From the NCBI RefSeq assembly GCF_003334355.1, contig NZ_QOWP01000020.1: a stretch of DNA of 64,000 nt; one strand, given 5' to 3'. Each line of letters starts with the position of its first letter. Position 1 is the first letter of the stretch. Below the pieces are notes generated by a model. The model was not told the origin of the DNA. It was given only the letters and a program-made list of their open reading frames with translations, and did not search any database. A program made the position numbers and the translations under genes. This DNA is from Escherichia coli. Its GTDB lineage: Bacteria; Pseudomonadota; Gammaproteobacteria; Enterobacterales; Enterobacteriaceae. Shown in pieces: positions 6,346 to 64,000 of the stretch.

Positions 6346-7254
6346 TTAACTTTGCAGATAGCCGCATTCTCGCCGGAATTGCGTGATTAATGACGCGGTC
6401 AGTGGTGTCTGGCGACTATCACGCCGCTGAATCAAATAATAGGCCGCTTTCGGTAAAATTTCGCTAACCGGCAACATCACCAGCCCCTGTCCGTGCAAGG
6501 GATCGCAGCCCATTTCTTCAGGCAGTATGCTGAGAAAATCGCTTTTTGCCACCAGACTGATACAGGCTGAGAACGTCTCGCAGACTACACCGACCTGTGG
6601 CGTTTGCGCCTGATCGTCAAGCAATTCACTCAACTGTTTGTAGTAACTGCCGTGTGGCGTCGGCATTGTCCAGCTGTAATCCAGTAACTGTTTGATCGAA
6701 CGGGCACCAATGGCGGGGTGTCCCGGGCGGCAAAAGATCGCGAATTGCTTTTCCAGTAATTTCTCAAAAGTAAATTCGTGGTCGTACGGTCCCTGATAAT
6801 AGGTATTGATGGTGAAATCCAATTCTCCCTGACGCAATTCATTAATCATCGACACCAGTTGCCCTTCCATAATGCGTACTTTTACCTGCGGATGCTGCTG
6901 ATGAAAACGAGATATGACAGCTGGCATCAGACTGCGGGAAATACTGGCCCCCATGCCGATATTAATCTGCCCTGCCAGTTGCCCTTGTCGTTGGCGAATA
7001 TCCTCTTGGGCTGCGCGCAGCTCTTCAAGAATAAGACTGGCGTGCTGATAAAAACTTTCACCGGCATCAGTTAACGTCACGCCTTTACTACGGCGAAAAA
7101 AGAGTTGCGCCGCTAACCCTTCTTCCAGCTCCTGAATAGATTTACTCAGTGCCGGTTGCGACATATTCAACATTCGGCTCGCTCCGCGAATGCTGCCCTG
7201 ACGAGCCACTTCAACAAAAGCCCGAATTTGATGAATTTTTACCTGAAAAGCCAT
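6346..7254 (-). CDS. abgR: LysR-family transcriptional regulator AbgR
   Basis: 302-aa ORF with N-terminal LysR HTH; divergent from abgA. Confidence 0.92.
   Translation of the reverse strand: MAFQVKIHQIRAFVEVARQGSIRGASRMLNMSQPALSKSIQELEEGLAAQLFFRRSKGVTLTDAGESFYQHASLILEELRAAQEDIRQRQGQLAGQINIGMGASISRSLMPAVISRFHQQHPQVKVRIMEGQLVSMINELRQGELDFTINTYYQGPYDHEFTFEKLLEKQFAIFCRPGHPAIGARSIKQLLDYSWTMPTPHGSYYKQLSELLDDQAQTPQVGVVCETFSACISLVAKSDFLSILPEEMGCDPLHGQGLVMLPVSEILPKAAYYLIQRRDSRQTPLTASLITQFRRECGYLQS

Positions 7255-20897: not shown

Positions 20898-20923
<26 letters not shown>
20195..20923 (+). CDS. mpaA: murein peptide amidase A (gamma-D-Glu-mDAP amidase)
   Basis: ORF 20135..20923; likely start ATG at 20195 (MTVTRPRAERG...), 242 aa; M14 carboxypeptidase-like. 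Confidence 0.9.
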
Positions 20924-21905
<982 letters not shown>

Positions 21906-38898: not shown

Positions 38899-40578
38899 TT
38901 ATTTAATCCACATAACCTGCCAGGGGCGCAGCGTTATTTCATTACCCAATATATCAACTTCACTAATCAGATCCCGACCATGCAGATTAGTAATATTTAC
39001 ATGCTGAATATTTTTACTGACATTAAACAATCCAGTCAGACAATTACCATCAGCGTTACTTCTTTGAATACGCATTACGGATGAATTAATCGTATCAATG
39101 GTAAAATTATTATCCGGATGAAACTCGTTATGGCTGCGACGAAGTGTAATTAAACGCGACAACTCATGATATACCGCATGCCTTAATGTAGCTTCATCGT
39201 TCAGTTCTCGGGTTATCTCTTTACTGTGATATTTTTTACGGTTAATCGCACGGTTATATCCGAGTTTTTCGACACCTGCGTAATCATTACGCGAGCCAAG
39301 AATACTTTGAATATATATCGCTGGCACACCGGGGAAACTTAACAAAATCGCATGGGCAAGGATAAACCTGGCGCAACGTTCTTCATCGCTACTCTCACGG
39401 CGGCTTAACGCATCCATATAGGTCACATTTATTTCATACGGACTGCGTGTACCGTCGGGATTATTTTTCCAGTTTACTAATGCACCTTCCTGCTGTAACG
39501 CCTCGACCAGCTCTAATATTTCGCTTTCAGGCAACAAGCCCCGTAGCGGGTTTAGCCCGATGCCATCGTGAGAGGCGAGGAAGTTAAACCAGGTGGTGTT
39601 GCTGGAAGGTAGTGTCAGGTTTTGCGCCCACGCACAAAGCGCCTCAACGTTCTGTTTTTGCACCGCATGCAGCACCAGTGGCGGCAGCGAGAACTGGTAC
39701 ACCATATGTGCTTCGTCATCGCCTGCGCCAAAGTAAGCAATGTTGTCTTTATGCGGAACATTGGTCTCGGTAATGATCACTGTACCTGGCGCAACGTTAT
39801 CAATAATCGACCGTAACAGTTTGATAATCAGATGTGTTTTTTCCAGATGGATGCAGCTTGTTCCCGGCTCTTTCCACATAAAGCCAACGGCATCCAGGCG
39901 GACATACTCAGCACCTTTCGCAAAGTAACAGAGTAAAACATCCACCATCGCCAGCAACACTTCAGGGCTACGGTAATTCAGGTCAATTTGATCGTCACTA
40001 AAGGTGGTCCATAAATGGCGCGTTGAATGATCGCGCATCTGGAATGGCGTTAATAACGGTAACGCACGCGGGCGAGTGACGGCGCTGAGATCGGTTTGCG
40101 GGTCAACGGCAATAAAAAAATCTTCAAAACCTGGATGCTGTTGTAAATAGTTTTTAAACCATTCACTTTTTGCCGACATATGGTTGCAGACAAAATCAAA
40201 CATTAAATGACTGCATTCACCGAGTTGCTGAATATCCTGCCACTCCCCCGCTTCACTGGCGACCTGATGATAATCAATTACCGAAAAGCCATCATCAGAT
40301 GACCATGGATAAAACGGCAACAAATGAACATGTGAAAAAATGCTTTGCAGCCATTGATGGTAAAACTGATTAAATGTGGGTAATGGTTTTAAATCATTGC
40401 TGTGAAATTGATCGGCATAGGTAATTAACACGACATCACTTTCATCCCAGTGTTTTTTACGTCGCTGTGTAATTAATCGTTTCGCACTCTCAAGACGCGT
40501 TACAAGTTTCTGTAAATGAGTTGCGGTAAATGTTCCACCGTAGATTTCGTCCAGGTAATCCGTAATTTTCTGTTTCAT
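38899..40578 (-). CDS. ycjM: glucosylglycerate phosphorylase YcjM (GH13_18)
   Basis: ORF 38899..40605; likely start at 40578 (MKQKITDYLDEIYG...), 559 aa; sucrose-phosphorylase-like GH13. Confidence 0.9.
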   Translation of the reverse strand: MKQKITDYLDEIYGGTFTATHLQKLVTRLESAKRLITQRRKKHWDESDVVLITYADQFHSNDLKPLPTFNQFYHQWLQSIFSHVHLLPFYPWSSDDGFSVIDYHQVASEAGEWQDIQQLGECSHLMFDFVCNHMSAKSEWFKNYLQQHPGFEDFFIAVDPQTDLSAVTRPRALPLLTPFQMRDHSTRHLWTTFSDDQIDLNYRSPEVLLAMVDVLLCYFAKGAEYVRLDAVGFMWKEPGTSCIHLEKTHLIIKLLRSIIDNVAPGTVIITETNVPHKDNIAYFGAGDDEAHMVYQFSLPPLVLHAVQKQNVEALCAWAQNLTLPSSNTTWFNFLASHDGIGLNPLRGLLPESEILELVEALQQEGALVNWKNNPDGTRSPYEINVTYMDALSRRESSDEERCARFILAHAILLSFPGVPAIYIQSILGSRNDYAGVEKLGYNRAINRKKYHSKEITRELNDEATLRHAVYHELSRLITLRRSHNEFHPDNNFTIDTINSSVMRIQRSNADGNCLTGLFNVSKNIQHVNITNLHGRDLISEVDILGNEITLRPWQVMWIK

Positions 40579-40748
40579 GTTGCCTTTCCGTGGTAGCGGT
40601 CCCATGAAACGAGAGACTACTCCGCAGAAAATAAACTGTCAATTGAGCACAAGGGTTTTAGTCACGCAGGAAATCATTTTTTACCAGGGAAAAAGCGTAT
40701 TTGTGAGCTGACGCAAATAATCTATGGGGATGTAAATAAGGTGTGACA

Positions 40749-40778
40749 GAAAAAAAAACGGCGCATAAGCGCCGCTCA
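40749..40778 (-). terminator. intrinsic terminator of the psp operon (after pspE)
   Basis: On the minus strand, hairpin agcggcgcttatgcgccgt followed by a U9 tract. Confidence 0.8.
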
Positions 40779-40790
40779 TGGTGAATTCTT

Positions 40791-41105
40791 TTAACCTTTG
40801 ACCTTCGGCATTGCGATGTCTTTCAGGCCACCGGCGTTCTCAACGTGGGTATATCCCATCTCGCTAAGGATCTCTTTTGCTTGCCCTGACTGGCGTCCGG
40901 CATTGCAATACACTTTCACGGTGTCGTTTTTATCCGGAACGGCGGTGGCAATGCGCTCTTTCACTTCCTTCAGGGGAATATTGATGGCCCCCTGAACGTG
41001 CTCTTGCTGATACTGCTCTGGAACACGAACATCGATCCAGTGTTCAGCGGCGAAAACGGGCAGTGAAAACACCAGTGCCAGAGCAAGTAAGCCTTTTTTA
41101 AACAT
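40791..41105 (-). CDS. pspE: periplasmic rhodanese PspE
   Basis: 104-aa ORF with signal peptide and rhodanese active-site Cys (YCNAGRQS). Confidence 0.94.
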   Translation of the reverse strand: MFKKGLLALALVFSLPVFAAEHWIDVRVPEQYQQEHVQGAINIPLKEVKERIATAVPDKNDTVKVYCNAGRQSGQAKEILSEMGYTHVENAGGLKDIAMPKVKG

Positions 41106-41179
41106 GTAAGCGTCCTTCTATGGATGAAAATTGCCATCCATTATACGCCTGAGATTTAACAATTTTTGCGAAACTCCCC

Positions 41180-41401
41180 TCACCTTTTATAACGCTGTGC
41201 CAGTTTATTAGTAGCCCGACTTAACAGCGGTTCCAGCGCCACAGCCAGCAACATTTTCAGCGGTCGGCGAGCAACTGATTTTATCGCCCAGCCCGCCACA
41301 CCCGCCGGGCCATAGCGCAGTGCGGTAAGAAGTACCAGCTTGCCTGCTAATTTGAAACCAGGCTTTACCTTTTGCCCGGCCTGTTGCCAGCGAGTATTCA
41401 T
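41180..41401 (-). CDS. pspD: phage shock protein D
   Basis: ORF 41180..41413; likely start at 41401 ([10 protein letters not shown]...), 73 aa. Confidence 0.9.
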
Positions 41402-41409
41402 AACTTTCC

Positions 41410-41769
41410 TCACAGTTGACGGAAACGGCTACGTAACGTGAAAGTATCGGAAGTGACATAACGTTCCATCTCGCGTAAACGCGTTTCACTTGCCGCCAGT
41501 TCACGGTCGACTTCATCCAGCAATTCGCTGCTGGAAGGTAGCTGCTCACCAAAGGCCATGTTGTCCGGCATTGGATCAAGCGCAAATGACAAAATGATGT
41601 AAGCAACCAGGGTAAACAGCGCCAGACCGAAGAAAATCGACAGCACCACCAGGATACGCACCAGTTTTACCGGTACATCAAAATAGTTGGCAATCCCGGC
41701 GCAGACGCCGCGGACCATGCCCTGCTGTGGAATACGCCATAATTTTTTATTGAGATTAATGCCCGCCAT
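41410..41769 (-). CDS. pspC: phage shock protein C
   Basis: 119-aa ORF with one transmembrane helix; PspC domain. Confidence 0.94.
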
Positions 41770-41993
41770 TAGCGATCCCTCCAGTTCGGATGTTCTGCAT
41801 CAAGAATAGATTCCAGCGCCTGAATACGTTCGCGCATCCGTTTTGCTTCATCAGCCAGTTGCGCTAATCGCTGCTGCTCACTTTGCGACAATTCACTGCG
41901 ACCAGAACGATTGCTGTAATGCAGCCATAACCAGATCGGTAAAACAAACAGCACAAAAATGGTTAACGGAATAGCCAGAAATAACGCGCTCAT
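41769..41993 (-). CDS. pspB: phage shock protein B
   Basis: 74-aa ORF with N-terminal transmembrane helix; overlaps the pspC start. Confidence 0.94.
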   Translation of the reverse strand: MSALFLAIPLTIFVLFVLPIWLWLHYSNRSGRSELSQSEQQRLAQLADEAKRMRERIQALESILDAEHPNWRDR

Positions 41994-42046
41994 AAGTACT
42001 CCTTAGACGATGAGCGGCGGCGCGTTCGGACGCCGCCTGGATGTTA

Positions 42047-42787
<741 letters not shown>

Positions 42788-42881
42788 TTATCTTTTTGAT
42801 TTATAAAGATCTGATTGAAGAATCAACAGCAACATGCCAGGATGAGTTAGCGAATTACACTAACAAGTGGCGAATTTCATC

Positions 42882-43859
42882 ATGGCAGAATACAAAGATA
42901 ATTTACTTGGTGAGGCGAACAGCTTTCTCGAAGTGCTGGAACAGGTTTCGCATCTCGCACCGCTGGACAAACCGGTGCTCATCATCGGCGAACGCGGCAC
43001 CGGTAAAGAGCTGATTGCCAGCCGCCTGCATTATCTCTCCTCCCGTTGGCAAGGGCCGTTTATTTCCCTTAACTGCGCGGCGTTAAATGAAAATCTGCTG
43101 GATTCCGAACTGTTTGGTCACGAAGCGGGGGCGTTTACCGGTGCGCAAAAACGTCATCCAGGGAGATTTGAACGTGCCGACGGCGGTACGCTATTTCTTG
43201 ATGAACTCGCTACGGCACCGATGATGGTGCAGGAGAAATTATTGCGCGTGATTGAGTACGGTGAACTGGAGCGCGTTGGCGGCAGCCAGCCATTGCAGGT
43301 GAATGTGCGGTTGGTATGCGCGACGAATGCCGATCTCCCGGCGATGGTCAATGAAGGCACTTTTCGCGCTGACCTGCTCGACCGACTGGCTTTTGATGTT
43401 GTACAACTGCCACCACTGCGCGAGCGCGAAAGCGACATAATGTTGATGGCAGAACACTTTGCCATCCAGATGTGTCGGGAAATCAAGCTGCCTCTGTTCC
43501 CGGGGTTTACGGAGCGCGCCAGAGAAACATTGCTGAATTATCGTTGGCCGGGAAATATTCGTGAATTGAAAAACGTGGTGGAACGTTCAGTGTATCGCCA
43601 CGGCACCAGCGATTATCCGCTTGATGACATCATTATTGATCCCTTTAAACGGCGTCCGCCTGAAGACGCTATCGCCGTTTCAGAAACCACCTCGCTTCCA
43701 ACACTGCCGCTGGATTTACGTGAGTTTCAGATGCAGCAGGAAAAAGAGTTGCTGCAACTCAGTTTGCAACAAGGGAAATATAACCAGAAGCGCGCGGCTG
43801 AATTACTGGGGTTAACTTATCATCAGTTCCGCGCGTTGTTGAAAAAGCACCAGATTTAG
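42882..43859 (+). CDS. pspF: sigma-54 activator PspF
   Basis: ORF 42867..43859; likely start at 42882 (MAEYKDNLLGE...), 325 aa; AAA+ with GAFTGA motif and C-terminal HTH. Confidence 0.95.
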   Translation: MAEYKDNLLGEANSFLEVLEQVSHLAPLDKPVLIIGERGTGKELIASRLHYLSSRWQGPFISLNCAALNENLLDSELFGHEAGAFTGAQKRHPGRFERADGGTLFLDELATAPMMVQEKLLRVIEYGELERVGGSQPLQVNVRLVCATNADLPAMVNEGTFRADLLDRLAFDVVQLPPLRERESDIMLMAEHFAIQMCREIKLPLFPGFTERARETLLNYRWPGNIRELKNVVERSVYRHGTSDYPLDDIIIDPFKRRPPEDAIAVSETTSLPTLPLDLREFQMQQEKELLQLSLQQGKYNQKRAAELLGLTYHQFRALLKKHQI

Positions 43860-43880
43860 CGAAGTTGAGCAATACAACTT

Positions 43881-43958
43881 GCCGGATGCGGCGTGAATGC
43901 TTTATTCGGCATACATAATCAATACGTCGTTTGCAGGCCTGATAAGCGCAGCGCATCA
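43881..43958. repeat. REP-like palindromic units (pspF-puuE spacer)
   Basis: gccggatgcggcgtgaatgctttattcggc and aggcctgataagcgcagcgcatca. Confidence 0.6.
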
Positions 43959-43978
43959 TACATTATTGCGTTGGGCTA

Positions 43979-45244
43979 TTAATCGCTCAGCGCATCCTGC
44001 AAAATTTTCATTGCCGCATCGAATTGCGCATCCGGGATGGTCAGCGGATACAGGAAGCGAATCACGTTGCCGTATGCGCCACAGGTCAGCAGGAGCAGCC
44101 CCTGCGCCAGCGCGCGTTGCTGGATTTTCTGTGCAATCGCCGCTGACGGCTCGCCCGTTTGCGGATCGTTAAACTCTACCGCAATCATCGACCCCAGGCC
44201 GCGTACCGCAGCAATGGCCGGAACGCTTTCTTTGGCATCAATCAACGTGTTTTTGAGACGCTGGCCCAGTTGATTCGCGCGTTCGCAGAGTGATTCTTTG
44301 TCGATAATATTGAGCACCGCGTGCGCGGCAGCCACCGCCAGCGGGTTACCGGCGTAGGTGCCGCCAAGCCCGCCCGGCGCGGGTGCGTCCATAATATTCG
44401 CGTTACCGACCACGCCCGAAAGCGGCATCCCGCCCGCGAGGCTTTTCGCCATCGTCATTAAATCCGGCTTATCGGCGTAATGATCCATGGCAAACAGCTT
44501 ACCGGTACGCGCAAAGCCGCTTTGCACTTCATCAGCAATCATCACAATACCGTGCTCGTCGCACAGGCGGCGAATAGCGGCAACCAGCTCTTTTGGCGCA
44601 ACGTTGAAACCGCCCTCGCCCTGCACCGGTTCGAAAATAATCGCCGCCACCTGCTTCGCTTCGATGTCTGATTTAAACAAGCGTTCGATGGCGTCGAGGG
44701 AGTCCTGTGTTGAAATGCCGTGTAAATCTGACGGATAAGGTACGTGATACACCGAACCAGGGAACGGGCCGAAGCCGATTTTGTACGGCGCAACTTTTCC
44801 GGTCAGCGCCATGGTCATATACGTACGACCGTGAAAGCCGCCGCTAAACGCAATCACGCCAGGGCGTCCGGTATGGGCGCGAGCAATTTTCACCGCGTTT
44901 TCCACCGCTTCCGCACCGGTGGTGAAGAACGCGGTTTTGGCCTGCCCGCTCACCGGGGCAAGGGCGTTGATTTTCTCCGCCAGGGTGACGTAGCTTTCAT
45001 ACGGCACAATCTGATACGCGGTGTGGGTAAACTGTTGCAGTTGCTGCTCCACCGCCGCGACCAGATCAGGGTGGCGATGTCCGGTATTCAGCACCGCAAT
45101 GCCTGCGGCGAAATCGATGTACTCGTTGCCCTCAACATCCTTCAGCGTGGCGTTTTCAGCCGACTGGGCGAAGAAGTTACACATCACGCCAACCCCGCGC
45201 GGAGTGGCAGAAAGACGACGCTGATGGAATTCATTGTTGCTCAT
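43979..45244 (-). CDS. puuE: 4-aminobutyrate aminotransferase PuuE
   Basis: 421-aa class-III PLP aminotransferase. Confidence 0.94.
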   Translation of the reverse strand: MSNNEFHQRRLSATPRGVGVMCNFFAQSAENATLKDVEGNEYIDFAAGIAVLNTGHRHPDLVAAVEQQLQQFTHTAYQIVPYESYVTLAEKINALAPVSGQAKTAFFTTGAEAVENAVKIARAHTGRPGVIAFSGGFHGRTYMTMALTGKVAPYKIGFGPFPGSVYHVPYPSDLHGISTQDSLDAIERLFKSDIEAKQVAAIIFEPVQGEGGFNVAPKELVAAIRRLCDEHGIVMIADEVQSGFARTGKLFAMDHYADKPDLMTMAKSLAGGMPLSGVVGNANIMDAPAPGGLGGTYAGNPLAVAAAHAVLNIIDKESLCERANQLGQRLKNTLIDAKESVPAIAAVRGLGSMIAVEFNDPQTGEPSAAIAQKIQQRALAQGLLLLTCGAYGNVIRFLYPLTIPDAQFDAAMKILQDALSD

Positions 45245-45281
45245 GTTTCACACCTTTTGACTCTTCACGGTTAATCGGAAA

Positions 45282-46562
45282 TTAAACGCCCAGACGATCG
45301 CGCAGGCTGTAATACGCCGCGCCCATCGCGGTAAACGGCACACGCAGCGTGCGCCCGCCGGGGAACGGGTAATGCGGCAGATTGGCGAAGGCATCGAAAC
45401 GTTCGGCGTCGCCGCGCAGCAGTTCGGCAATCAAACGTCCGGCTAGATGAGTACAGGTCACGCCGTGGCCGCTGTAGCCCTGCATGTAATAGATGTTGGT
45501 ATCGAGGCGACCAAACTGCGGCATACGCGACAGGGTCAGCAGGAAGTTGCCCGTCCAGCGGTAATCAATTTTCACGCCCTTCAGCTGCGGGAAGGTTTTC
45601 AGCAGTTTCGGCACCACAAGGCGCTCAACGTCATCCGGGTCGCGCGCGCCGTAGACCACGCCGCCGCCGTACAGCAGGCGGTTGTCGGCGGTAAGACGGT
45701 AGTAATCAAGCAGATAGTTACAGTCTTCCACACAGTAGTTTTTCGGGATCAGCGAACGGGCTAAATCTTCCGACAGCCGTTCGGTGGTGATCACCTGCGT
45801 GCCGCACGGCATGCTGCGTTTCGCCAGTTCCGGCTCTACTTTATCGCCCAGATACGCATTCCCGGCGACAATCACATACTTCGCCGTCACCTGACCTTTG
45901 GCAGTTCGCACAACGGCTGGCGTGGTGTGCTGGATCTGCGTCACGGCAGAAAGTTCATACACGCGCCCGCCGTTGAGGCGGATGGCGTCCGCTTCGCCAA
46001 TGGCGAGGTTTAGCGGATGAATATGCCCACCGCTGTGATCCAGCAGCGCACCAGTGTAGCGATCGCTGGCGACCTCGCGGCGAATAGCGTTGGCGTCCAG
46101 CAGCTCCAGCTGATTATTGCCGTAGCGTTCCCAGTTCTCTTTCTGCTCTTCGAGTGTGGCGAGTTGTTTATCATTCATCGCCACAAACAGACCGCCGGGA
46201 CGATAGTCGCAGTCAATCTGATAACGTTTGATACGTTCGCGGATGATCTCGCCACCCTCGAACATCATGCTGCCGAGCATACGGGCGGTGTCCATGCCGT
46301 AGTTTTTTTCGATCACGTCGATGTCGCGGCTGTAGGAGTTCACAAGCTGCCCGCCATTGCGTCCGCTTGCGCCGAAGCCGATGCGTGAGGCTTCAAGAAC
46401 CACCACGTCAAAGCCCGCTTCCGCCAGATGCAGCGCGGAAGAGAGCCCGGTATAGCCGCCGCCGACCACGCAAACGTCGCAGGAAATCGACTCATTCAGC
46501 GTGTCGAATGGCGCGTATTTATTCGCACTGGCGGCGTAGTAACTGCTGGTATGTTCGGTCAT
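45282..46562 (-). CDS. puuB: gamma-glutamylputrescine oxidase PuuB
   Basis: 426-aa ORF with FAD-binding GxGxxG (VVGGGYTG). Confidence 0.94.
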   Translation of the reverse strand: MTEHTSSYYAASANKYAPFDTLNESISCDVCVVGGGYTGLSSALHLAEAGFDVVVLEASRIGFGASGRNGGQLVNSYSRDIDVIEKNYGMDTARMLGSMMFEGGEIIRERIKRYQIDCDYRPGGLFVAMNDKQLATLEEQKENWERYGNNQLELLDANAIRREVASDRYTGALLDHSGGHIHPLNLAIGEADAIRLNGGRVYELSAVTQIQHTTPAVVRTAKGQVTAKYVIVAGNAYLGDKVEPELAKRSMPCGTQVITTERLSEDLARSLIPKNYCVEDCNYLLDYYRLTADNRLLYGGGVVYGARDPDDVERLVVPKLLKTFPQLKGVKIDYRWTGNFLLTLSRMPQFGRLDTNIYYMQGYSGHGVTCTHLAGRLIAELLRGDAERFDAFANLPHYPFPGGRTLRVPFTAMGAAYYSLRDRLGV

Positions 46563-46563
46563 T

Positions 46564-48051
46564 TCAGGCCTCCAGGCTTATCCAGATGGTTTTCAGTTCG
46601 GTGAATTTTTCAAGGGCATGCAGGGATTTGTCGCGACCGTTGCCGCTCTGCTTATAGCCGCCAAACGGCACGGTCATATCGCCGTCGTTGTAGTTATTGA
46701 CGAAGACGGAACCAGCCTTCAGGCGGCGGCTCATGCGGTGCGCGCGGGAGAGGTCGCGCGTCCATACCGCCGCGCCAAGGCCGTACTGGCTGTCGTTGGC
46801 AAGCTGTAGCGCCTGTTCTTCTGATGTGAAACGCGTGACCACCAGCACCGGACCGAAAATCTCTTCGCGGCTTAAGGACGCATTCGGGTCTACATCCACA
46901 AAGATGGTCGGGCCGATGGCGGCAGCCAGCTCAGCGTTACGACCATCCAGCAGCAGTTGCCCTTTGCTTTCGCCTTCCCGAATAAAGCTATGGACCGAGT
47001 CGGCGTGGGCGCAGTCGATTAAGGTGCCCATGGTGGTTGCGGGATCAAGTGGATGGCCCGGCTGCCAGTTTTGCGCCTACTGTTTTAACAGGGCTAAGAA
47101 TTCATCGGCGATGCTCTCTTCCAGCAACAAACGCGTTCCGGCGATGCACACCTGGCCCTGGTTGTAGAAGATGCCTGCGGCGGTGGCGCTTGCCGCTTTT
47201 TACAGATCCGGACAATCGGCGAAAACGAGGTTGGCGCTTTTGCCGCCCGCTTCCAGCCAGACGCGTTTCATGTTGCTGTCGCCCGCATCTTTCAGCAGCT
47301 GTTTCCCGGTACGGGTTGAACCGGTAAAGGCAATGGCGTCGATATCGTTATGACGCGACAGCGCCTGCCCCGCTTCATGACCAAAACCCGTCACCACGTT
47401 CAACACACCATCCGGCAAGCCTGCTTCTTTCGCCAGCCCCGCGAGACGAATCGCACTGAGCGGTGATTTTTCAGACGGTTTTAGAATCACGCTGTTTCCC
47501 GCCGCCAGCGCCGGGCCGAGTTTCCAGCAAGTCAGCAACAGCGGGAAGTTCCACGGCACGATGGCGGCAATCACGCCGACCGGTTCACGCACGATCATCG
47601 CCAGCTCATGGCTACTGGTGGTCGCCACTTCGCCATACACTTTGTCGATCGCTTCGGCGTACCAGCGAATGGCGCGCGCCGCGCCGGGAATATCATCACG
47701 CAGACTGTGACGAATCGGTTTGCCGGTGTCGAGAGTTTCCAGCAGTGCCAGCTCTTCGGCGTGGGCTTCCATTAAATCGGCGAGTTTATTCAGTACCGCT
47801 TTACGTTTAGCCGGAGAAGAGAGTGACCAGTCGCCGCGTTCAAATACGCCGCGTGCTGCGCTCACCGCACGGTCGATATCGACGCTCTTGCCGCGGGCAA
47901 TTTTCGCCAGCGGTGCCTGGGTGACCGGATCAACGGTTTCAAAGGTTTCATTTTCCGCCGCAGCAGTATATTCACCGTTAATAAATAAGCGGTTTTCAAT
48001 GGCGAGACTTAACGCTTTATCCTGCCAGTAAGCCAGATGATGAAAATTCAT
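46564..48051 (-). pseudogene. puuC: gamma-glutamyl-gamma-aminobutyraldehyde dehydrogenase PuuC with two in-frame stop codons
   Basis: Aldehyde-dehydrogenase reading frame runs from the ATG at 48051 to 46564 in a single frame but contains TAA (47200-47202) after ...FADCPDL and TAG (47077-47079) after ...LALLKQ. Sequence between and after the stops remains ALDH-like (KAASATAAGIFYNQGQVCIAGTR...; AQNWQPGHPLDPATTMGTL...). Confidence 0.8.
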
Positions 48052-48325
48052 TATGACTCCTGTTTCACGTCTATCAGATATATGCAGTTTGTGAACGTCA
48101 GGGCGCAGAGATCCCCGGGCCGTATGCCCGTTTATTTCTGGCGACATTCTTTATATACACTTCATCCTTCAAGCCGCCTCTGCCTTGGCTGCGTTCGCTC
48201 CCCCGAATCACTTACCTGAGTAAGCTCATCGGGATTCGCTCACTTGCCGCCTTGATGCAACTTGAATGATTTTGTGTATAGATTGCCGGGCGCATTGCGC
48301 TTACCCGGCTTACAGAACAAAAAGA

Positions 48326-48883
48326 TTAAAACGTGGTGGGCGTATGGGCGCTGATAATTCGGCAAATACCTGCCGACGTATTACTGAAACTGTGCGGGAT
48401 GCCGGTATTAATGGCATAACTTTGCCCCGCGACGAGGTGGTAATCCTGACCATTAATCGTCAGAACAATTTCACCTTCCAGTACTGTGCCTATTTCCTCA
48501 CCCTGATGCTTAATTCTTTCCCCAGTGGTTGTGCCCGGCTGGTACGTTTCAAAGATCATCGCCAGCGTGCGATTCGGGTTACCGTTATGAACCAGCTTCA
48601 TTGACACACCCTGACTGCCCATCTCAATTAAGTCGTCCTGATTAATGACGACCTGCGGCTCATCAGGTTTTTCCGGCTCGGAAAAGAATTCCGAGAGTGA
48701 CAGACCATACACCTTCAGCAGCTTTTGCAGCGTACTGATGGCAGGGCTGACTTTATCTTGTTCTATCGTACTGATAGCACTGTGAGTCAGCCCGGAGAGT
48801 TCGGCGGCACGACGTTGTGAAAGCCCCTGCTGCTGGCGGATTTCCGACAAGCGTTTTCCTGGCGCCAGTCCCTCATCACTCAT
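48326..48883 (-). CDS. puuR: HTH-type repressor PuuR (XRE HTH plus cupin)
   Basis: 185-aa ORF; N-terminal HTH (LSQRRAAELSGLTHSAISTIE) and C-terminal cupin. Confidence 0.94.
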   Translation of the reverse strand: MSDEGLAPGKRLSEIRQQQGLSQRRAAELSGLTHSAISTIEQDKVSPAISTLQKLLKVYGLSLSEFFSEPEKPDEPQVVINQDDLIEMGSQGVSMKLVHNGNPNRTLAMIFETYQPGTTTGERIKHQGEEIGTVLEGEIVLTINGQDYHLVAGQSYAINTGIPHSFSNTSAGICRIISAHTPTTF

Positions 48884-48909
48884 ATTTGCATTTCCTTAAA
48901 CTGTAGTGG

Positions 48910-49674
48910 TCAGAGTCGCTGTTTTTCAGCGATATGGTGCTGACAAGCGGTGATAAAGCCCTCGAACAATATACGCGAAAGCGCGTACTCGCTACTGTTC
49001 CATTCCGGGTGCCACTGTACGCCCAGCGCAAAAGGATGATTGATGACGCTAACCGCCTCAACTAAGCCATCCGGCGAGCGAGCTTCAACACGCAACCGTG
49101 GGCTAACGACCTTCGCCCCTTGTCCATGCAGAGAGTTTACCCAAAAGTTGCTACATTCAGGTAACAACGCAGACAGTAATCCCCCCTCTTCAACCTGAAC
49201 TTCATGCGACGGTGCATATTGCTGTTCCACCGGCAGTTCGGGATCTTCCCGATGTTCCAGCAATTCAGGCTGTTCGCACAGCTTGCGATGCAACGAACCA
49301 CCGGTTGCCACCACCAGTTCCTGTAAACCCCGGCAGATGGCGAAAATGGGGATGCGCCTTTCGAGTGCGGCATTAATTAACGCCATGCTCAGAAGATCAC
49401 GCCCGGGATCGGCGTCAGGCTCATCGCCGTTTTCACCATATAGGTGCGGCTGCACATTGCTGGGACTACCAGGAAGATAAATGCCATCGAGTTTCGGCAA
49501 AAGTTGTTCAAGTAATGACGGTTCCGCCAGCGCATGTGGTAACGCAATTGGCAAGCCGCCTGCGTGGATGATGGCATTCAGGTACTTTTCTTGCAGAGTC
49601 TGGGTCGCATGACCCTTAAGCCTGTTCCTGCACATTACGACACCGATAACCGGATTGTTCATTATATTTTCCAT
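48910..49674 (-). CDS. puuD: gamma-glutamyl-GABA hydrolase PuuD
   Basis: ORF 48910..49686; likely start at 49674 (MENIMNNPVIGVV...), 254 aa; class-I glutamine amidotransferase-like. Confidence 0.93.
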   Translation of the reverse strand: MENIMNNPVIGVVMCRNRLKGHATQTLQEKYLNAIIHAGGLPIALPHALAEPSLLEQLLPKLDGIYLPGSPSNVQPHLYGENGDEPDADPGRDLLSMALINAALERRIPIFAICRGLQELVVATGGSLHRKLCEQPELLEHREDPELPVEQQYAPSHEVQVEEGGLLSALLPECSNFWVNSLHGQGAKVVSPRLRVEARSPDGLVEAVSVINHPFALGVQWHPEWNSSEYALSRILFEGFITACQHHIAEKQRL

Positions 49675-49885
49675 GCTCAATCTCACAAAGTGGACTAAAT
49701 TATCGCCATTACTGCGCTTTAAATGACCTTTATGTTCAATATTTTTTCAATCTAGCAGTGGGTTTTCATTTTTGCAAACTCAATTTAACATTTGACAAAC
49801 ATTTAGTTTGCATACAGATTCGAATGGTGGTCATTATATTTTACGCTTTGATAACGAGCGGAAAACAAACCAAAGGCGAAGAATC

Positions 49886-51303
49886 ATGGAAACCAATATC
49901 GTTGAAGTAGAGAACTTTGTTCAGCAGTCAGAAGAGAGGCGGGGTAGCGCCTTTACGCAGGAAGTGAAACGCTACCTGGAGCGCTACCCGAATACGCAAT
50001 ATGTTGATGTTTTACTTACCGATTTAAATGGTTGCTTCCGTGGAAAGCGTATTCCTGTTTCAAGCCTGAAGAAGCTCGAGAAAGGGTGTTATTCCCGGCC
50101 TCGGTATTTGCAATGGATATTCTGGGCAACGTAGTAGAAGAAGCAGGTCTGGGTCAGGAAATGGGCGAGCCGGATCGTACCTGTGTTCCTGTTCTCGGTT
50201 CCTTAACTCCTTCTGCCGCCGATCCAGAGTTTATCGGTCAGATGCTCCTGACCATGGTCGATGAAGATGGCGCTCCCTTTGACGTTGAGCCGCGGAACGT
50301 TCTTAACCGCCTGTGGCAGCAGCTGCGCCAGCGCGGATTGTTCCCGGTCGTAGCGGTAGAGCTGGAGTTCTATTTACTGGATCGCCAGCGCGACGCTGAA
50401 GGGTATCTGCAACCGCCCTGCGCGCCTGGCACCGATGACCGCAATACACAAAGCCAGGTTTACTCCGTTGATAACCTCAACCACTTCGCCGACGTGCTCA
50501 ATGATATTGATGAACTGGCGCAGTTACAGCTGATTCCGGCAGATGGCGCGGTCGCTGAGGCCTCGCCGGGTCAGTTTGAAATCAACCTTTACCATACTGA
50601 TAACGTGCTGGAAGCCTGCGATGATGCGCTGGCACTAAAACGCCTGGTGCGTCTGATGGCAGAAAAGCATAAGATGCACGCCACTTTTATGGCGAAGCCG
50701 TATGAAGAGCACGCGGGCAGCGGAATGCATATCCATATCAGTATGCAAAATAATCGTGGCGAGAACGTGCTTTCTGACGCGGAAGGCGAAGATTCGCCGC
50801 TGCTGAAAAAGATGCTCGCCGGGATGATTGACCTGATGCCGTCGTCGATGGCGTTGCTGGCACCAAACGTGAACTCGTATCGCCGCTTCCAGCCGGGAAT
50901 GTATGTGCCGACGCAGGCGTCGTGGGGCCATAACAACCGCACCGTCGCCCTGCGTATTCCGTGCGGCGACCGTCATAATCACCGCGTGGAATATCGCGTG
51001 GCGGGTGCCGATGCCAACCCATATCTGGTGATGGCAGCGATTTTTGCCGGTATTTTGCATGGCCTTGATAACGAGCTGCCGTTGCAGGAAGAAGTCGAAG
51101 GCAACGGGCTGGAACAGGAAGGCTTACCCTTTCCGATTCGCCAGAGCGATGCCCTGGGTGAGTTTATCGAGAATGATCACCTGCGCCGCTATTTAGGCGA
51201 ACGCTTCTGCCATGTCTATCACGCCTGTAAAAATGATGAGCTGTTGCAGTTTGAGCGCCTCATCACAGAAACAGAAATTGAGTGGATGTTGAAAAACGCG
51301 TAA
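49886..51303 (+). pseudogene. puuA: glutamate-putrescine ligase PuuA disrupted by a 1-bp deletion
   Basis: N-terminus METNIVEVENF...LEKGCY is in one frame and stops at 50132-50134. The glutamine-synthetase-like remainder (FPASVFAMDILGN... to MLKNA) is in the -1 frame (ORF 50032..51303). The junction is at tgttat-t-cccggcc (about 50090-50094), where one T appears to be missing. Confidence 0.8.
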
Positions 51304-51605
51304 TACCCCTTGCGGGGTTGTTTCATCGGCCTGAGCGGAGCCAGGACTGACATTTGCTGGTAATCCAGACATTTCCCGGATGTCGCGTTATGGAGCGCGG
51401 GCGGCAACGGGCTTCCGTTAACGATTAAGACTGTGACGAGGAAATGAGATGATGCCGATGATTAAATCCCCGCATGGCGAGGGAGGCTGCGTATGCGCCC
51501 CTCCTGCTACTGACTGGACTCCGCCCCCTTTGCTTCCCTTGCTAAACAGGTTTGATTTCAGGTCGACACGACCGCAAACCTTATTACGCAGGGGAGGCAG
51601 CAATT

Positions 51606-52991
51606 ATGGCTATTAATTCACCACTGAATATTGCTGCGCAACCCGGCAAAACCCGTCTGCGAAAATCACTGAAATTGTGGCAGGTGGTGATGATGGGTCT
51701 GGCCTATCTCACGCCGATGACCGTATTTGATACTTTTGGTATTGTCTCCGGCATTAGCGACGGTCACGTTCCGGCGTCCTATTTGCTGGCGCTGGCGGGT
51801 GTGCTGTTTACCGCTATCAGCTACGGCAAACTGGTTCGCCAGTTTCCGGAGGCCGGTTCGGCCTATACCTACGCGCAAAAGTCGATTAACCCGCACGTCG
51901 GATTTATGGTCGGCTGGTCATCGCTGCTGGATTATCTCTTTTTGCCGATGATTAACGTCTTGTTGGCGAAAATCTATCTCTCCGCCCTCTTCCCGGAAGT
52001 GCCGCCGTGGGTGTGGGTGGTAACCTTCGTCGCCATTTTAACCGCCGCGAATCTGAAGAGCGTCAACCTGGTCGCTAACTTCAATACCCTGTTTGTACTG
52101 GTGCAAATCTCCATCATGGTGGTGTTTATCTTCCTGGTAGTTCAGGGACTGCATAAAGGAGAAGGCGTTGGCACCGTCTGGTCACTTCAGCCGTTTATCA
52201 GCGAGAACGCGCACCTGATCCCGATTATTACCGGGGCGACGATTGTCTGTTTCTCCTTCCTCGGTTTCGATGCGGTGACCACGCTTTCGGAAGAGACGCC
52301 GGACGCCGCACGCGTGATCCCGAAAGCCATCTTCCTGACGGCGGTCTACGGTGGCGTTATCTTTATCGCGGCGTCGTTCTTTATGCAGCTGTTCTTTCCC
52401 GATATCAGCCGCTTTAAAGATCCGGATGCCGCACTGCCTGAAATTGCGCTGTACGTCGGCGGCAAGCTCTTCCAGTCGATTTTCCTCTGCACCACGTTTG
52501 TGAACACGTTAGCCTCTGGCCTGGCTTCACATGCCAGCGTGTCGCGTCTGCTGTATGTGATGGGGCGTGACAATGTGTTTCCGGAGCGCGTGTTTGGCTA
52601 TGTGCACCCAAAATGGCGGACTCCGGCACTCAACGTCATTATGGTCGGGATTGTCGCGTTGTCGGCGCTGTTCTTCGATTTAGTTACCGCCACAGCGTTA
52701 ATTAACTTCGGTGCTCTGGTGGCGTTTACCTTCGTGAATCTGTCGGTGTTTAATCATTTCTGGCGGCGTAAAGGAATGAATAAAAGCTGGAAGGATCACT
52801 TCCACTATTTGCTGATGCCGCTGGTTGGCGCGCTGACGGTGGGTGTGCTGTGGGTTAACCTCGAGTCAACGTCACTGACACTCGGTCTGGTATGGGCTTC
52901 GTTAGGCGGCGCATATTTATGGTATCTGATCCGCCGCTATCGCAAAGTGCCGTTGTATGATGGTGACAGAACGCCGGTGAGTGAAACGTAA
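51606..52991 (+). CDS. puuP: putrescine importer PuuP (APC family)
   Basis: ORF 51552..52991; start ATG at 51606 after gggagg RBS ([12 protein letters not shown]...); 12-TM amino-acid/polyamine permease. Confidence 0.94.
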
Positions 52992-53124
52992 TAGTCGGAT
53001 GCGCGGCGCATTATCCTGCCTGAGGGTAACGCGCCGCGCCATTAACTATAAAAAGATGTATGACCCGGATCACGAGTGCTATCATCCGCCCTTATGCTTA
53101 GCGCATTAACCCCAGGGGCAAATA

Positions 53125-53370
53125 ATGAACCACGATATCCCGCTAAAATATTTTGATATTGCCGATGAGTACGCGACCGAATGCGCAGAGCCTGTCGCAG
53201 AGGCTGAACGCACACCGCTGGCCCACTACTTCCAGTTACTGCTCACCCGTTTGATGAACAATGAAGAGATCAGCGAAGAAGCCCAACATGAAATGGCTGC
53301 TGAAGCGGGGATTAATCCCGTACGCATTGATGAGATCGCAGAGTTTTTGAATCAATGGGGTAATGAGTAA
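53125..53370 (+). CDS. ymjA: small acidic protein YmjA (DUF2543)
   Basis: 81-aa ORF; matches YmjA. Confidence 0.85.
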
Positions 53371-53682
53371 TGATTTAATTGCAGACGATCGGTCAGTATC
53401 GTTGTCCGGATAAAGCGTTCACGCCGCATCTGGCTAACAATGACACGCACTGCAGCGTGCTTTAATGGGTTTCTCACGATCGTACCGCTCTGCTCCTCGC
53501 TAAGTTGTTCTGTGAGTTATAGTTATAGAGAAATCACGGGTACGAATGTTGAACAGATGGCGACGTCACCTGTTCAACGACCAACCACACGGCCCTCATT
53601 ACGACCCCTGAACACAAACGGTAATGGCAAATGTCATTAAATATTAGTAAGATAGCCTCTTTACATAAAATCCCTTAATATT

Positions 53683-55326
53683 ATGCGCCAGGTATTATCG
53701 TCTCTTTTGGTGATTGCTGGACTTGTGAGTGGTCAGGCAATCGCCGCGCCTGAATCTCCCCCGCATGCTGATATCCGCGACAGCGGTTTTGTCTATTGCG
53801 TCAGCGGGCAAGTCAACACCTTTAACCCATCCAAAGCGAGCAGTGGGTTAATTGTCGATACCCTTGCCGCCCAGTTTTATGATCGACTGCTGGATGTCGA
53901 TCCCTATACCTATCGCCTGATGCCGGAACTTGCCGAAAGCTGGGAAGTACTCGACAACGGCGCGACCTATCGCTTCCACCTGCGTCGCGATGTTCCGTTT
54001 CAAAAAACCGACTGGTTTACTCCCACTCGTAAAATGAATGCCGACGATGTGGTGTTTACCTTCCAGCGAATTTTTGACCGCAACAACCCGTGGCATAACG
54101 TCAACGGCAGCAACTTCCCCTACTTCGACAGCCTGCAATTTGCCGATAACGTGAAAAGCGTCCGCAAACTGGATAATCATACCGTTGAGTTCCGACTCGC
54201 CCAGCCGGATGCTTCTTTTTTGTGGCACCTCGCAACCCATTATGCTTCGGTCATGTCGGCAGAATATGCCCGGAAGTTAGAGAAAGAAGATCGCCAGGAG
54301 CAACTCGACCGTCAACCGGTCGGCACCGGTCCGTATCAGTTGTCGGAATACCGCGCCGGGCAATTTATTCGCCTACAACGTCATGATGACTTCTGGCGCG
54401 GTAAACCGTTAATGCCGCAGGTAGTGGTGGATTTAGGCTCCGGCGGCACCGGACGTCTGTCGAAACTCCTGACCGGGGAATGTGACGTTCTGGCCTGGCC
54501 TGCTGCCAGCCAGCTATCCATTTTGCGTGACGACCCGCGCTTGCGTTTAACGCTGCGTCCTGGGATGAACGTCGCCTATCTGGCATTTAACACCGCCAAA
54601 CCGCCGCTAAATAATCCCGCTGTCCGCCATGCACTGGCACTGGCGATTAATAACCAGCGCCTGATGCAATCCATCTATTATGGTACGGCTGAAACGGCGG
54701 CCTCTATTTTACCGCGCGCCTCGTGGGCCTATGACAACGAGGCTAAAATTACTGAATACAATCCGGCGAAATCGCGCGAACAGTTGAAGGCGTTGGGGCT
54801 GGAAAACTTAACGCTGAAACTGTGGGTGCCCACACGTTCGCAGGCGTGGAACCCCAGTCCACTGAAAACTGCCGAACTGATTCAGGCGGATATGGCGCAG
54901 GTTGGCGTAAAAGTGGTGATTGTGCCGGTAGAAGGTCGCTTTCAGGAGGCGCGGTTGATGGATATGAGCCATGATCTGACGTTATCCGGTTGGGCGACGG
55001 ACAGTAACGACCCGGACAGTTTCTTCCGTCCTTTACTGAGCTGCGCGGCAATTCATTCACAGACCAACCTCGCCCACTGGTGCGATCCGAAATTCGACAG
55101 CGTGTTGCGTAAGGCGCTCTCCTCGCAGCAGCTGGCGGCGCGTATTGAAGCCTATGACGAAGCGCAGAGTATTCTGGCGCAGGAATTGCCCATTTTGCCG
55201 CTGGCGTCGTCATTGCGTTTGCAGGCCTATCGGTACGATATCAAAGGTCTGGTACTTAGCCCGTTTGGTAACGCCTCCTTTGCTGGGGTGTATCGCGAGA
55301 AACAGGATGAGGTGAAAAAACCATGA
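53683..55326 (+). CDS. sapA: periplasmic binding protein SapA
   Basis: 547-aa ORF with signal peptide; SBP family 5. Confidence 0.94.
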
Positions 55327-59032: not shown

Positions 59033-59479
59033 GTGATAGATAAAATTAAATCAAATGCGCGTGATTTAAGACGCAATCTCACTTTGCAGGAACGAAAGCT
59101 CTGGCGATATCTTCGCAGCCGACGTTTTAGTGATTTCAAATTTCGCCGTCAACATCCAGTGGGGAGCTACATTCTCGATTTTGCTTGCTGCTCGGCGCGT
59201 GTAGTCGTTGAGCTGGATGGTGGGCAGCATGATTTAGCAGTTGCCTATGATTCCAGGCGCACTAGCTGGCTTGAGTCGCAGGGCTGGACCGTGCTGCGTT
59301 TCTGGAATAACGAGATTGATTGTAATGAGGAGACGGTGCTGGAGAATATTCGGCAAGGTCTGAACCGTCCCAGCCATCGCCATGAAAGGGTTAGGGGCTG
59401 TATGAGCCTGTTTGTTGCTGGGGTAACAATATTTGCACAATACGGTCCCCTCGCCCCTCTGGGGAGAGGGTTAGGGTGA
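59033..59479 (+). CDS. ycjD: DUF559 endonuclease-like domain protein (YcjD-like)
   Basis: ORF with a Vsr/DUF559-like core (...VVELDGGQHD...). The 148-aa reading frame continues into the GC-rich repeat at 59440-59500, so the C-terminus is probably extended relative to K-12 YcjD (about 117 aa by my recollection). Confidence 0.7.
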   Translation: MIDKIKSNARDLRRNLTLQERKLWRYLRSRRFSDFKFRRQHPVGSYILDFACCSARVVVELDGGQHDLAVAYDSRRTSWLESQGWTVLRFWNNEIDCNEETVLENIRQGLNRPSHRHERVRGCMSLFVAGVTIFAQYGPLAPLGRGLG

Positions 59480-60580: not shown

Positions 60581-61708
60581 ATGGAACAACGCCACATCAC
60601 CGGCAAAAGCCACTGGTATCATGAAACGCAATCCAGTACTGCGGAGTATGACGTTCTGCCTCTGGTCCCGGAAGCCGCAAAGGTCAGCGATCCCTTTCTG
60701 CTCGACGTGATCCTTGATGAAGAAACGCTGGCTCCCTTCCTTTCATGGCTGGTCCCTGCGCGCGTTCTTGCAGTGGAATTGTTCCCTGACCAGCTTACCG
60801 TGACCCGTTCACAGACCTTCACCGCTTATGAACGCTTGTCTACGGCCCTGACGGTTGCTCAGGTTTGCGGCGTCCAGCGGTTATGTAACTACTATTCGGC
60901 GCGACTTACGCCGCTCCCCGGGCCTGATTCCTCCAGGGAAAGCAATCATAGGTTGGCACAAATCACGCAATATGCCCGCCAACTGGCTAGCTCGCCTTCT
61001 ATTATCGACAACCGATCGCGCCAGCATCTGAATGACGTCGGTCTTACTGCCTGGGACTGTGTGATCATTAACCAAATCATTGGTTTTATTGGCTTTCAGG
61101 CGCGGACCATTGCGACATTTCAGGCTTATCTCGGGCACCCGGTACGCTGGTTACCCGGTCTGGAAATACAAAACTACGCCGACGCGTCACTGTTTGCTGA
61201 TGAATCAATACGCTGGCGAAGCAGCTATGAGGTGGAAAAACTACCTGAAGAGTACACAAAAAGTTCAACTGCAGAACTTTGCCAACTGGCCGAAACACTC
61301 TCTCTCCACCCTATTTCACTTTCCCTTCTCGAAAGGTTGTTAAACAGTACACGGGTTAATACACAGCCGGATAATAAGCTTGCGGCGTTGTTATGCGCGC
61401 GGATAAATGGCAGTCCTGCTTGTTTTGCCGCCTGTATGGATTCATCAAATGAATATAAAAAAATCAGCGCTCTTGTGCGCAAGGGCGAAAATGAAATTAA
61501 CCAATGGGCTGACCGTCATTCTGTTGAGCACGCTACCGTTCAGGCGATACAATGGCTGACCCGAGCACCCGATCGCTTTAGCGCCGCCCAGTTCAGCCCT
61601 TTACTCGAACACGAAAAATCATCAACGCAGATTATTAATCTGCTGGTATGGAGCGGGCTGTGTGGCTGGATAAATCGCTTAAAAATCGCGTTGGGTGAGA
61701 CATATTAA
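60581..61708 (+). CDS. yciW: YciW (AhpD/CMD-like oxidoreductase family)
   Basis: ORF 60503..61708; likely start at 60581 (MEQRHITGK...) after aggagcg RBS; 375 aa. Confidence 0.88.
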
Positions 61709-63752: not shown

Positions 63753-63820
63753 CCCCGCTCTACCTTCATCATATCCCGGCAGTTTTTTAACTGACTTTCG
63801 TTTGAAAACTGGCGTTTTTC

Positions 63821-64000
63821 GGTGATGCTGCCAACTTACTGATTTAGTGTATGATGGTGTTTTTGAGGTGCTCCAGTGGCTTCTGTTTCTATCAGCTGTC
63901 CCTCCTGTTCAGCTACTGACGGGGTGGTGCGTAACGGCAAAAGCACTGCCGGACATCAGCGCTATCTCTGCTCTCACTGCCGTAAAACATGGCAACTGCA
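63821..64000 (+). mobile_element. IS1 insertion sequence, left end, truncated by the window edge
   Basis: ggtgatgctgccaacttactgatttagtgtatgatggtgtttttgaggtgctccagtggcttctgtttctatcagc... matches my recollection of the IS1 left terminal inverted repeat and the beginning of insA. Confidence 0.9.
63876..64000 (+). CDS. insA: IS1 InsA (partial, 5' part only)
   Basis: GTG start then [40 protein letters not shown]..., the InsA N-terminal zinc-finger region; the ORF continues beyond the window. Confidence 0.85.

Follow-up and report, generated by a model that had tools for sequence, protein, structure and literature searches.

Gene organization of the puu locus and two stop codons within puuC

The window analyzed here, i.e., the whole stretch of 64,000 nucleotides of Escherichia coli DNA, harbors a puu gene cluster in the order puuP-ymjE-puuA/puuD-puuR-puuC-puuB-puuE. 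The puuA side is oriented divergently, and the arrangement is the same as in the corresponding loci of E. coli PSS-12, ATCC 8739, and K-12 (Table 1). The puuC frame on the minus strand is of full length, with 1488 nt that comprise 495 codons and the terminal stop codon. Upon translation, internal stops were confined to codons 284 and 325, 41 codons apart, and neither an indel nor a frameshift was observed. Both stops arose from glutamine codons by a C>T change on the coding strand, at coding positions 850 (CAA>TAA, Q284*) and 973 (CAG>TAG, Q325*). Retranslation reproduced exactly the gene coordinates, the positions of the two stops, and the distance between them as given in the original prediction for this locus.

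Table 1. Features of the puu locus in the window (coordinates refer to the 64,000-nt stretch)
Feature	Coordinates	Strand	Description	Basis
puuC	46564..48051	-	Probable pseudogene; gamma-glutamyl-gamma-aminobutyraldehyde dehydrogenase	Translation, comparison with ATCC 8739, annotation in PSS-12, NF007352 score
Q284*	47200..47202	-	Nonsense codon CAA>TAA, the older one by parsimony	Translation; comparison with ATCC 8739 and K-12
Q325*	47077..47079	-	Nonsense codon CAG>TAG, the younger one by parsimony, lineage specific	Translation; comparison with ATCC 8739 and K-12
Cys302	47146..47148	-	Presumed catalytic cysteine codon, motif QVCIAG	Motif position; between the two stops
puuB	45282..46562	-	Open frame with window-specific missense change K150N, immediately downstream of puuC	
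puuE	43979..45244	-	Open frame, last gene downstream of puuC	
puuR	48326..48883	-	Repressor gene, intact	
puuD	48910..49674	-	Intact in the window; frameshifted in the sister lineage PSS-12/L007/L009/L012	
puuA	49886..51303	+	Glutamate-putrescine ligase gene, predicted to be inactivated	1-bp deletion TTT>TT at about 50091-50094
puuP	51606..52991	+	Putrescine importer gene, intact	

A megablast search of puuC against 5426 complete E. coli genomes returned best matches of 99.9% identity that are annotated as "aldehyde dehydrogenase PuuC." Close relatives carry intact orthologs at this locus; ATCC 8739 and many others deviate only at the two stop positions, and their genes are annotated as intact puuC. 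The intact puuC of ATCC 8739 (WP_001009112.1) likewise consists of 1488 nt and differs from the copy in the window at exactly two nucleotides, which are those of the two stops. This equal length with zero indels bears out the absence of a frameshift, and the finding of two point mutations on an allele that is otherwise that of ATCC 8739 agrees with the earlier proposal that the lesions are recent. Functional PuuC of K-12 MG1655 (b1300) has the same length and operon position and shows 98.2% nucleotide identity. Its gene carries CAA and CAG at the two codons, and the alignment with K-12 that had been suggested as a check hence reveals glutamine as the residue replaced in both cases.

The NCBIfam equivalog model for PuuC, NF007352, has a curated cutoff of 850 bits. 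The repaired protein, equivalent to the intact ATCC 8739 allele, scores 1112 bits against this model, and the frame is therefore not a chance pattern. Together with the order of the puu genes, this score confirms the predicted assignment to a PuuC-type aldehyde dehydrogenase (ALDH). The close structural neighbors of PuuC include KauB and a gamma-glutamyl-gamma-aminobutyraldehyde dehydrogenase. Both translatable pieces of the interrupted gene fall below the cutoff, with 629 bits for residues 1 to 283 and 337 bits for residues 341 to 495. The DNA is that of puuC, yet a complete PuuC is not among its predicted products.

Without readthrough at the two stops, the longest product of puuC would have 283 residues. 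A stop at codon 284 of 495 takes away 43% of the protein, including Cys302, whereas Glu267 (motif LEAGGKS) lies ahead of this stop and hence inside the translated part. We take Cys302 to be the catalytic nucleophile and Glu267 to be catalytic as well, as is established for the ALDH superfamily. Translation would halt after codon 283, so that the NAD-binding part and Glu267 would be kept and Cys302 and the C-terminal 212 residues lost. Because the truncation falls before the catalytic cysteine, the 283-residue fragment is predicted to have no dehydrogenase activity. The position of the first stop ahead of Cys302 supports the view, already put forward in the original prediction, that puuC is inactivated unless its stops are suppressed.

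Occurrence of the puuC stops in public assemblies

Public assemblies were queried with exact PuuC protein fragments. The Logan contig ERR4578542_44 (63 kb), which is reported in 5 samples that are possibly not independent isolates, was found to be 100% identical to positions 40564 to 54051 of the window (13.5 kb). It contains both puuC stops as well as a deletion in puuA (see below) and encodes an N-terminal fragment of 283 residues and a C-terminal fragment of 155 residues. Q284* is also present in PSS-12 and in four further Logan contigs (L007, L009, L010, and L012). Since ERR4578542_44 carries both stops and PSS-12 and further sequencing runs carry Q284*, a base-calling error is excluded for practical purposes.

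Among the complete genomes, an exact 71-mer spanning Q284* was found in 1 of 5426 (PSS-12); only 1058 genomes gave any match to this 71-mer, since nearby polymorphisms break the megablast seed, and carriers with diverged alleles may have been missed. The corresponding 71-mer for Q325* had an exact match in 0 of 5426. The first lesion thus recurs in a known lineage, as had been asked at the outset, and the second one does not recur in the complete genomes. With this one complete genome and about a dozen public assemblies, the Q284* allele is rare. The double-stop haplotype is absent from the complete RefSeq E. coli genomes and present in assemblies of public read sets. In the literature on puuC pseudogenes in E. 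coli, we found no paper on this allele and only a preprint on Vibrio, which is considered below.

Four other assemblies (L013 to L016, i.e., SRR7947391, SRR18965777, SRR9902641, and GCA_012714125.2) were considered as carriers of Q284* and rejected, as their contigs merely end at codon 283/284 and at least two of them are wild type there. In each of the four, the contig breaks off no more than 2 nt from puuC codon 284 (locus positions 6849 to 6851); L013 and L014 end in wild-type CA, and L015 and L016 stop just short of the codon. They represent other E. coli backgrounds, and puuA is truncated or split in L014 and L015. The shared contig break could reflect a repeat boundary, a second copy of puuC, an insertion, or a mixed sample.

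Comparison with E. coli PSS-12 and order of the mutations

The closest complete genome is that of PSS-12 (NZ_AP027697.1), a human fecal isolate from Ecuador, with 26 substitutions and 2 single-base indels over 64 kb (99.96% identity). Its puuC (AABK13_RS04295) is annotated in RefSeq as a pseudogene with an "internal stop" and shares the Q284* TAA codon with the window, and the two copies differ by 1 nt over 1488 nt. The puuC allele background and the genomic setting are also alike. In contrast to the window, PSS-12 carries neither Q325* nor the puuA frameshift, and it has lesions of its own, namely, a frameshift in puuD, the missense changes I84T in puuB and C228Y in puuE, and an insertion of IS1203 in yciW. 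The first lesion of puuC is already flagged in RefSeq for PSS-12, and the gene is a standard nonsense pseudogene for which no new mechanism is required.

Mutations were polarized by parsimony using ATCC 8739 as the single outgroup. With PSS-12 included in the comparison, Q284* is common to the window and PSS-12, and Q325* is derived in the lineage of the window alone. On this polarization, Q284* is the older mutation, and Q325* arose later, in sequence that was no longer translated. Q325* was probably selectively neutral, and two stops can therefore sit at such a short distance from each other. The original prediction had regarded the close spacing of two nonsense codons as unusual; the spacing itself stands, and the order of events explains it, with Q325* hitting sequence that was already untranslated.

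By this parsimony comparison, an ancestor with a puuC gene of the ATCC 8739 type gained CAA>TAA at codon 284, and this allele persisted in several close lineages. The lineage of the window later gained CAG>TAG at codon 325, the 1-bp deletion in puuA, and K150N in puuB. In the PSS-12-type sister lineage, puuD was frameshifted instead, and puuB and puuE gained missense changes. A further carrier, L010 (SRR13347155), was compared over positions 41200 to 54050 of the window and harbors Q284* on a mosaic background. Near-identity to the window is restricted to about positions 46500 to 50000, and the flanks outside this segment are about 1.5 to 3% diverged. This mosaic suggests a recombinational exchange of the puuD-puuR-puuC segment, and the Q284* allele may have moved by recombination or may predate the clade.

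Additional lesions in the puu cluster and predicted consequences for the pathway

Every gene in the window was compared with the annotations of PSS-12 and ATCC 8739. The puuA gene contains a 1-bp deletion that was absent from the original prediction and is decisive for the pathway being dead. The frame shifts after about codon 69 and reaches a stop at codon 83. The deletion is derived in the lineage of the window, and an identical one is found in the Logan contig L008/L019, in which puuA was called as fragments of 82 and 405 amino acids. As puuA encodes the first enzyme of the gamma-glutamyl putrescine utilization (Puu) pathway, its frameshift would leave no entry into the pathway. No nonsense suppressor repairs a frameshift, and the pathway would therefore be dead even if the puuC stops were suppressed.

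The members of the PSS-12 lineage (L007, L009, L011, and L012) have the puuD frameshift, puuB I84T, and puuE C228Y in common. Private missense changes in puuB, puuE, and puuP occur among them. For the two genes downstream of puuC, premature termination probably lowers the expression of puuB and puuE via polarity or the loss of translational coupling. Coupling between puuC and puuB is likely because the puuC stop codon and the puuB ATG are only 1 nt apart. Putrescine would still be degraded via the separate PatA/PatD aminotransferase route, the genes of which are located outside the window. Both the order of the Puu pathway and this alternative route have been described for E. coli (PMC9397018).

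By megablast, puuC was detected in 4372 of the 5426 complete E. coli genomes, and puuC and puuA were each undetectable in about 1050 (~19%), which indicates that the pathway is dispensable in E. coli. Other broken copies were also found, including a puuA gene interrupted by IS1 (IS1X2) in strain 50EVAW and split puuC genes in several assemblies. Plasmid-borne matches were observed in the complete genomes at six places for puuC and six for puuA, and some genomes have two copies.

Taken together, the comparisons make it very likely that puuC in the window is a genuine, recently formed pseudogene and that the whole Puu pathway is out of action. The gene is best described as an ordinary pseudogene, specific to its lineage, within a catabolic gene cluster that is decaying.

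Other features of the window

A further nonsense codon was found in ycjG, encoding L-Ala-D/L-Glu epimerase (positions 20898 to 21863, minus strand). This change, Q103* (CAG>TAG, stop at 21555 to 21557), is specific to the lineage of the window and is the third C>T change from glutamine to stop in 64 kb. It is also present in the Logan contig ERR4578542_44 (L027) and in SRR3951466 (L028).

At the right end, downstream of rnb, positions 63821 to 64000 hold an IS1 left end (GGTGATGCTGCCAACTTACTG...) that starts at 63821. The alignment with PSS-12 extends through this end of the window, and an IS1A transposase is annotated just after rnb in that genome, whereas the alignment with ATCC 8739 ends at position 63820. 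The yciW gene (positions 60581 to 61708) is intact in the window and is split in PSS-12 by IS1203 (IS3 family) at about position 61215. In the gap between ycjD and fabI (approximately 59329 to 59367), ATCC 8739 has roughly 100 more bases than either the window or PSS-12. An overlapping repeat interrupts the BLAST alignment there, which points to an intergenic repeat that varies in copy number; the PSS-12 annotation lists ycjD as partial. At the left end, the 53 bases that precede ttcA (positions 1 to 53) can be aligned to PSS-12, which has a partial integrase gene and IS5 upstream, and do not align to ATCC 8739, where uspF is located upstream. Judged from these alignments, the left boundary of the window seems to fall at the border of a remnant prophage or integrase.

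Alternative explanations for the puuC lesions

Among the alternatives, the one that fares best concerns only the cause of the loss and is compatible with puuC being a pseudogene. Loss of the Puu pathway might have been advantageous in a gut lineage, and selection might then also have driven the later lesions of puuA in the window and of puuD in the PSS-12 lineage, although we regard this as rather unlikely. An advantage could result from higher intracellular putrescine, leading to more biofilm formation and adhesion, or from avoidance of a reactive aldehyde once puuC was lost. In each of the two sister lineages, a different puu gene was independently hit by a further mutation, a frameshift, which would fit selection; these parallel second hits are, however, compatible with adaptive loss and neutral decay equally. 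Also, 8 of the 28 differences between the window and PSS-12 are located in the 9-kb puu cluster, which makes up 14% of the window, an enrichment that is marginal and was computed post hoc (binomial P = 0.035).

The substitutions in puu genes of the Q284* clade, with 9 missense changes and 1 nonsense change versus 1 synonymous change, point in the same direction. However, the flanking psp genes and ymjA show missense changes only, at the same shallow divergence, and a high ratio is expected everywhere when divergence is very recent. The 10 nonsynonymous changes versus 1 synonymous change are not significantly above the neutral expectation of about 3:1. The ratio of missense to synonymous changes was also considered as proof of relaxed selection and proved uninformative, since the flanks show an equal excess. 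Taken with the second stop, the frameshifts in puuA and puuD, and the clustering of differences, the pattern is in keeping with a loss of constraint after the first lesion but is not strong proof of it.

External support for an advantage comes from a preprint reporting that the loss of Puu genes drove clonal wave replacement in pandemic Vibrio parahaemolyticus and that deletion of puuC in E. coli MG1655 increases biofilm formation and adhesion (10.1101/2024.06.03.596356). Against this explanation, the frameshift in puuD affects a step after PuuC and would thus do nothing against an accumulation of aldehyde, and the Q284* allele has remained rare in the complete genomes and public assemblies. 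A stepwise dismantling of the pathway under selection in a commensal E. coli lineage, in which Q284* spread partly by recombination (as in L010) before knockouts of puuA and puuD were favored separately, would account for these observations with a similarly low probability.

Whatever the cause of its loss, the conclusion that puuC is a pseudogene has to be weighed against the possibility that full-length PuuC is still produced, either by an ochre-type suppressor tRNA reading both UAA and UAG or by recoding. The new TAG codon in ycjG of the same lineage would be more easily tolerated by a suppressor strain. However, zero tRNA genes, and hence no candidate suppressor, were found within the 64-kb window, and ochre suppressors that work efficiently impose a cost and are seldom met in natural isolates. 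Programmed recoding is contradicted by the lack of conservation of the stops, which are glutamine codons in ATCC 8739, K-12, and essentially all other genomes. Furthermore, additional puu lesions are piling up in the sister lineages, as expected for a truly inactive gene, and the frameshift in puuA is beyond suppression. Readthrough of the stops is therefore considered very improbable.

Even less credit can be given to the view that the stops are sequencing or assembly errors in an intact gene. The absence of Q325* from all 5426 complete RefSeq genomes would be in line with an error, but both stops and the puuA deletion recur in an independently assembled contig that is reported in 5 sequencing runs and matches the window without a difference over 13.5 kb. 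Q284* is, in addition, carried by the complete PSS-12 genome and by at least four other runs, and both nonsense changes are substitutions, neither of which is located in a homopolymer.

An equally negligible chance remains for a deliberate or laboratory origin by cytosine base editing or chemical mutagenesis: each of the three nonsense codons in the window goes back to a C>T change in a CAA or CAG codon, the signature left by cytosine deaminase "stop" editing and by G:C>A:T mutagens, but Q284* is shared with a human fecal isolate from Ecuador and with runs lacking Q325*, and G:C>A:T transitions are the commonest spontaneous change and make up only 6 of the 11 lineage-specific substitutions. 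Editing was rejected for lack of a suitable NGG protospacer-adjacent motif (PAM), as no such PAM places the C of Q284* at protospacer positions 1 to 10 and those at Q325* place it only at positions 1, 2, and 9, where base editors do not usually act. Deamination at Dcm hot spots (CCWGG) was likewise rejected as the origin of these nonsense changes, as 0 of the 3 sites are Dcm sites.

Implications and comparison with Puu loss in Vibrio parahaemolyticus

With recent decay as the preferred reading, the puuC locus should be annotated as a pseudogene, and puuA likewise, and metabolic models of the strain should leave out the gamma-glutamyl putrescine pathway. Beyond correct annotation, the finding matters little. 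It provides a small and clean example of a second nonsense codon that apparently gathered neutrally behind a first one, and of sister lineages in which different genes of a single pathway decay in parallel. Should the loss have been selected after all, the locus would be a naturally occurring E. coli equivalent of the adaptive Puu loss proposed for pandemic V. parahaemolyticus and would add to the recent claim that loss of putrescine catabolism leads to better colonization traits.

The two cases have in common a lineage-specific loss of Puu functions in gut-associated gammaproteobacteria. In wave 4 of V. parahaemolyticus, the block VP1775-VP1786 was deleted, and this deletion is accompanied by phenotypes and epidemiological success (10.1101/2024.06.03.596356). 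In contrast, the E. coli locus described here represents decay by point mutations in a rare lineage.
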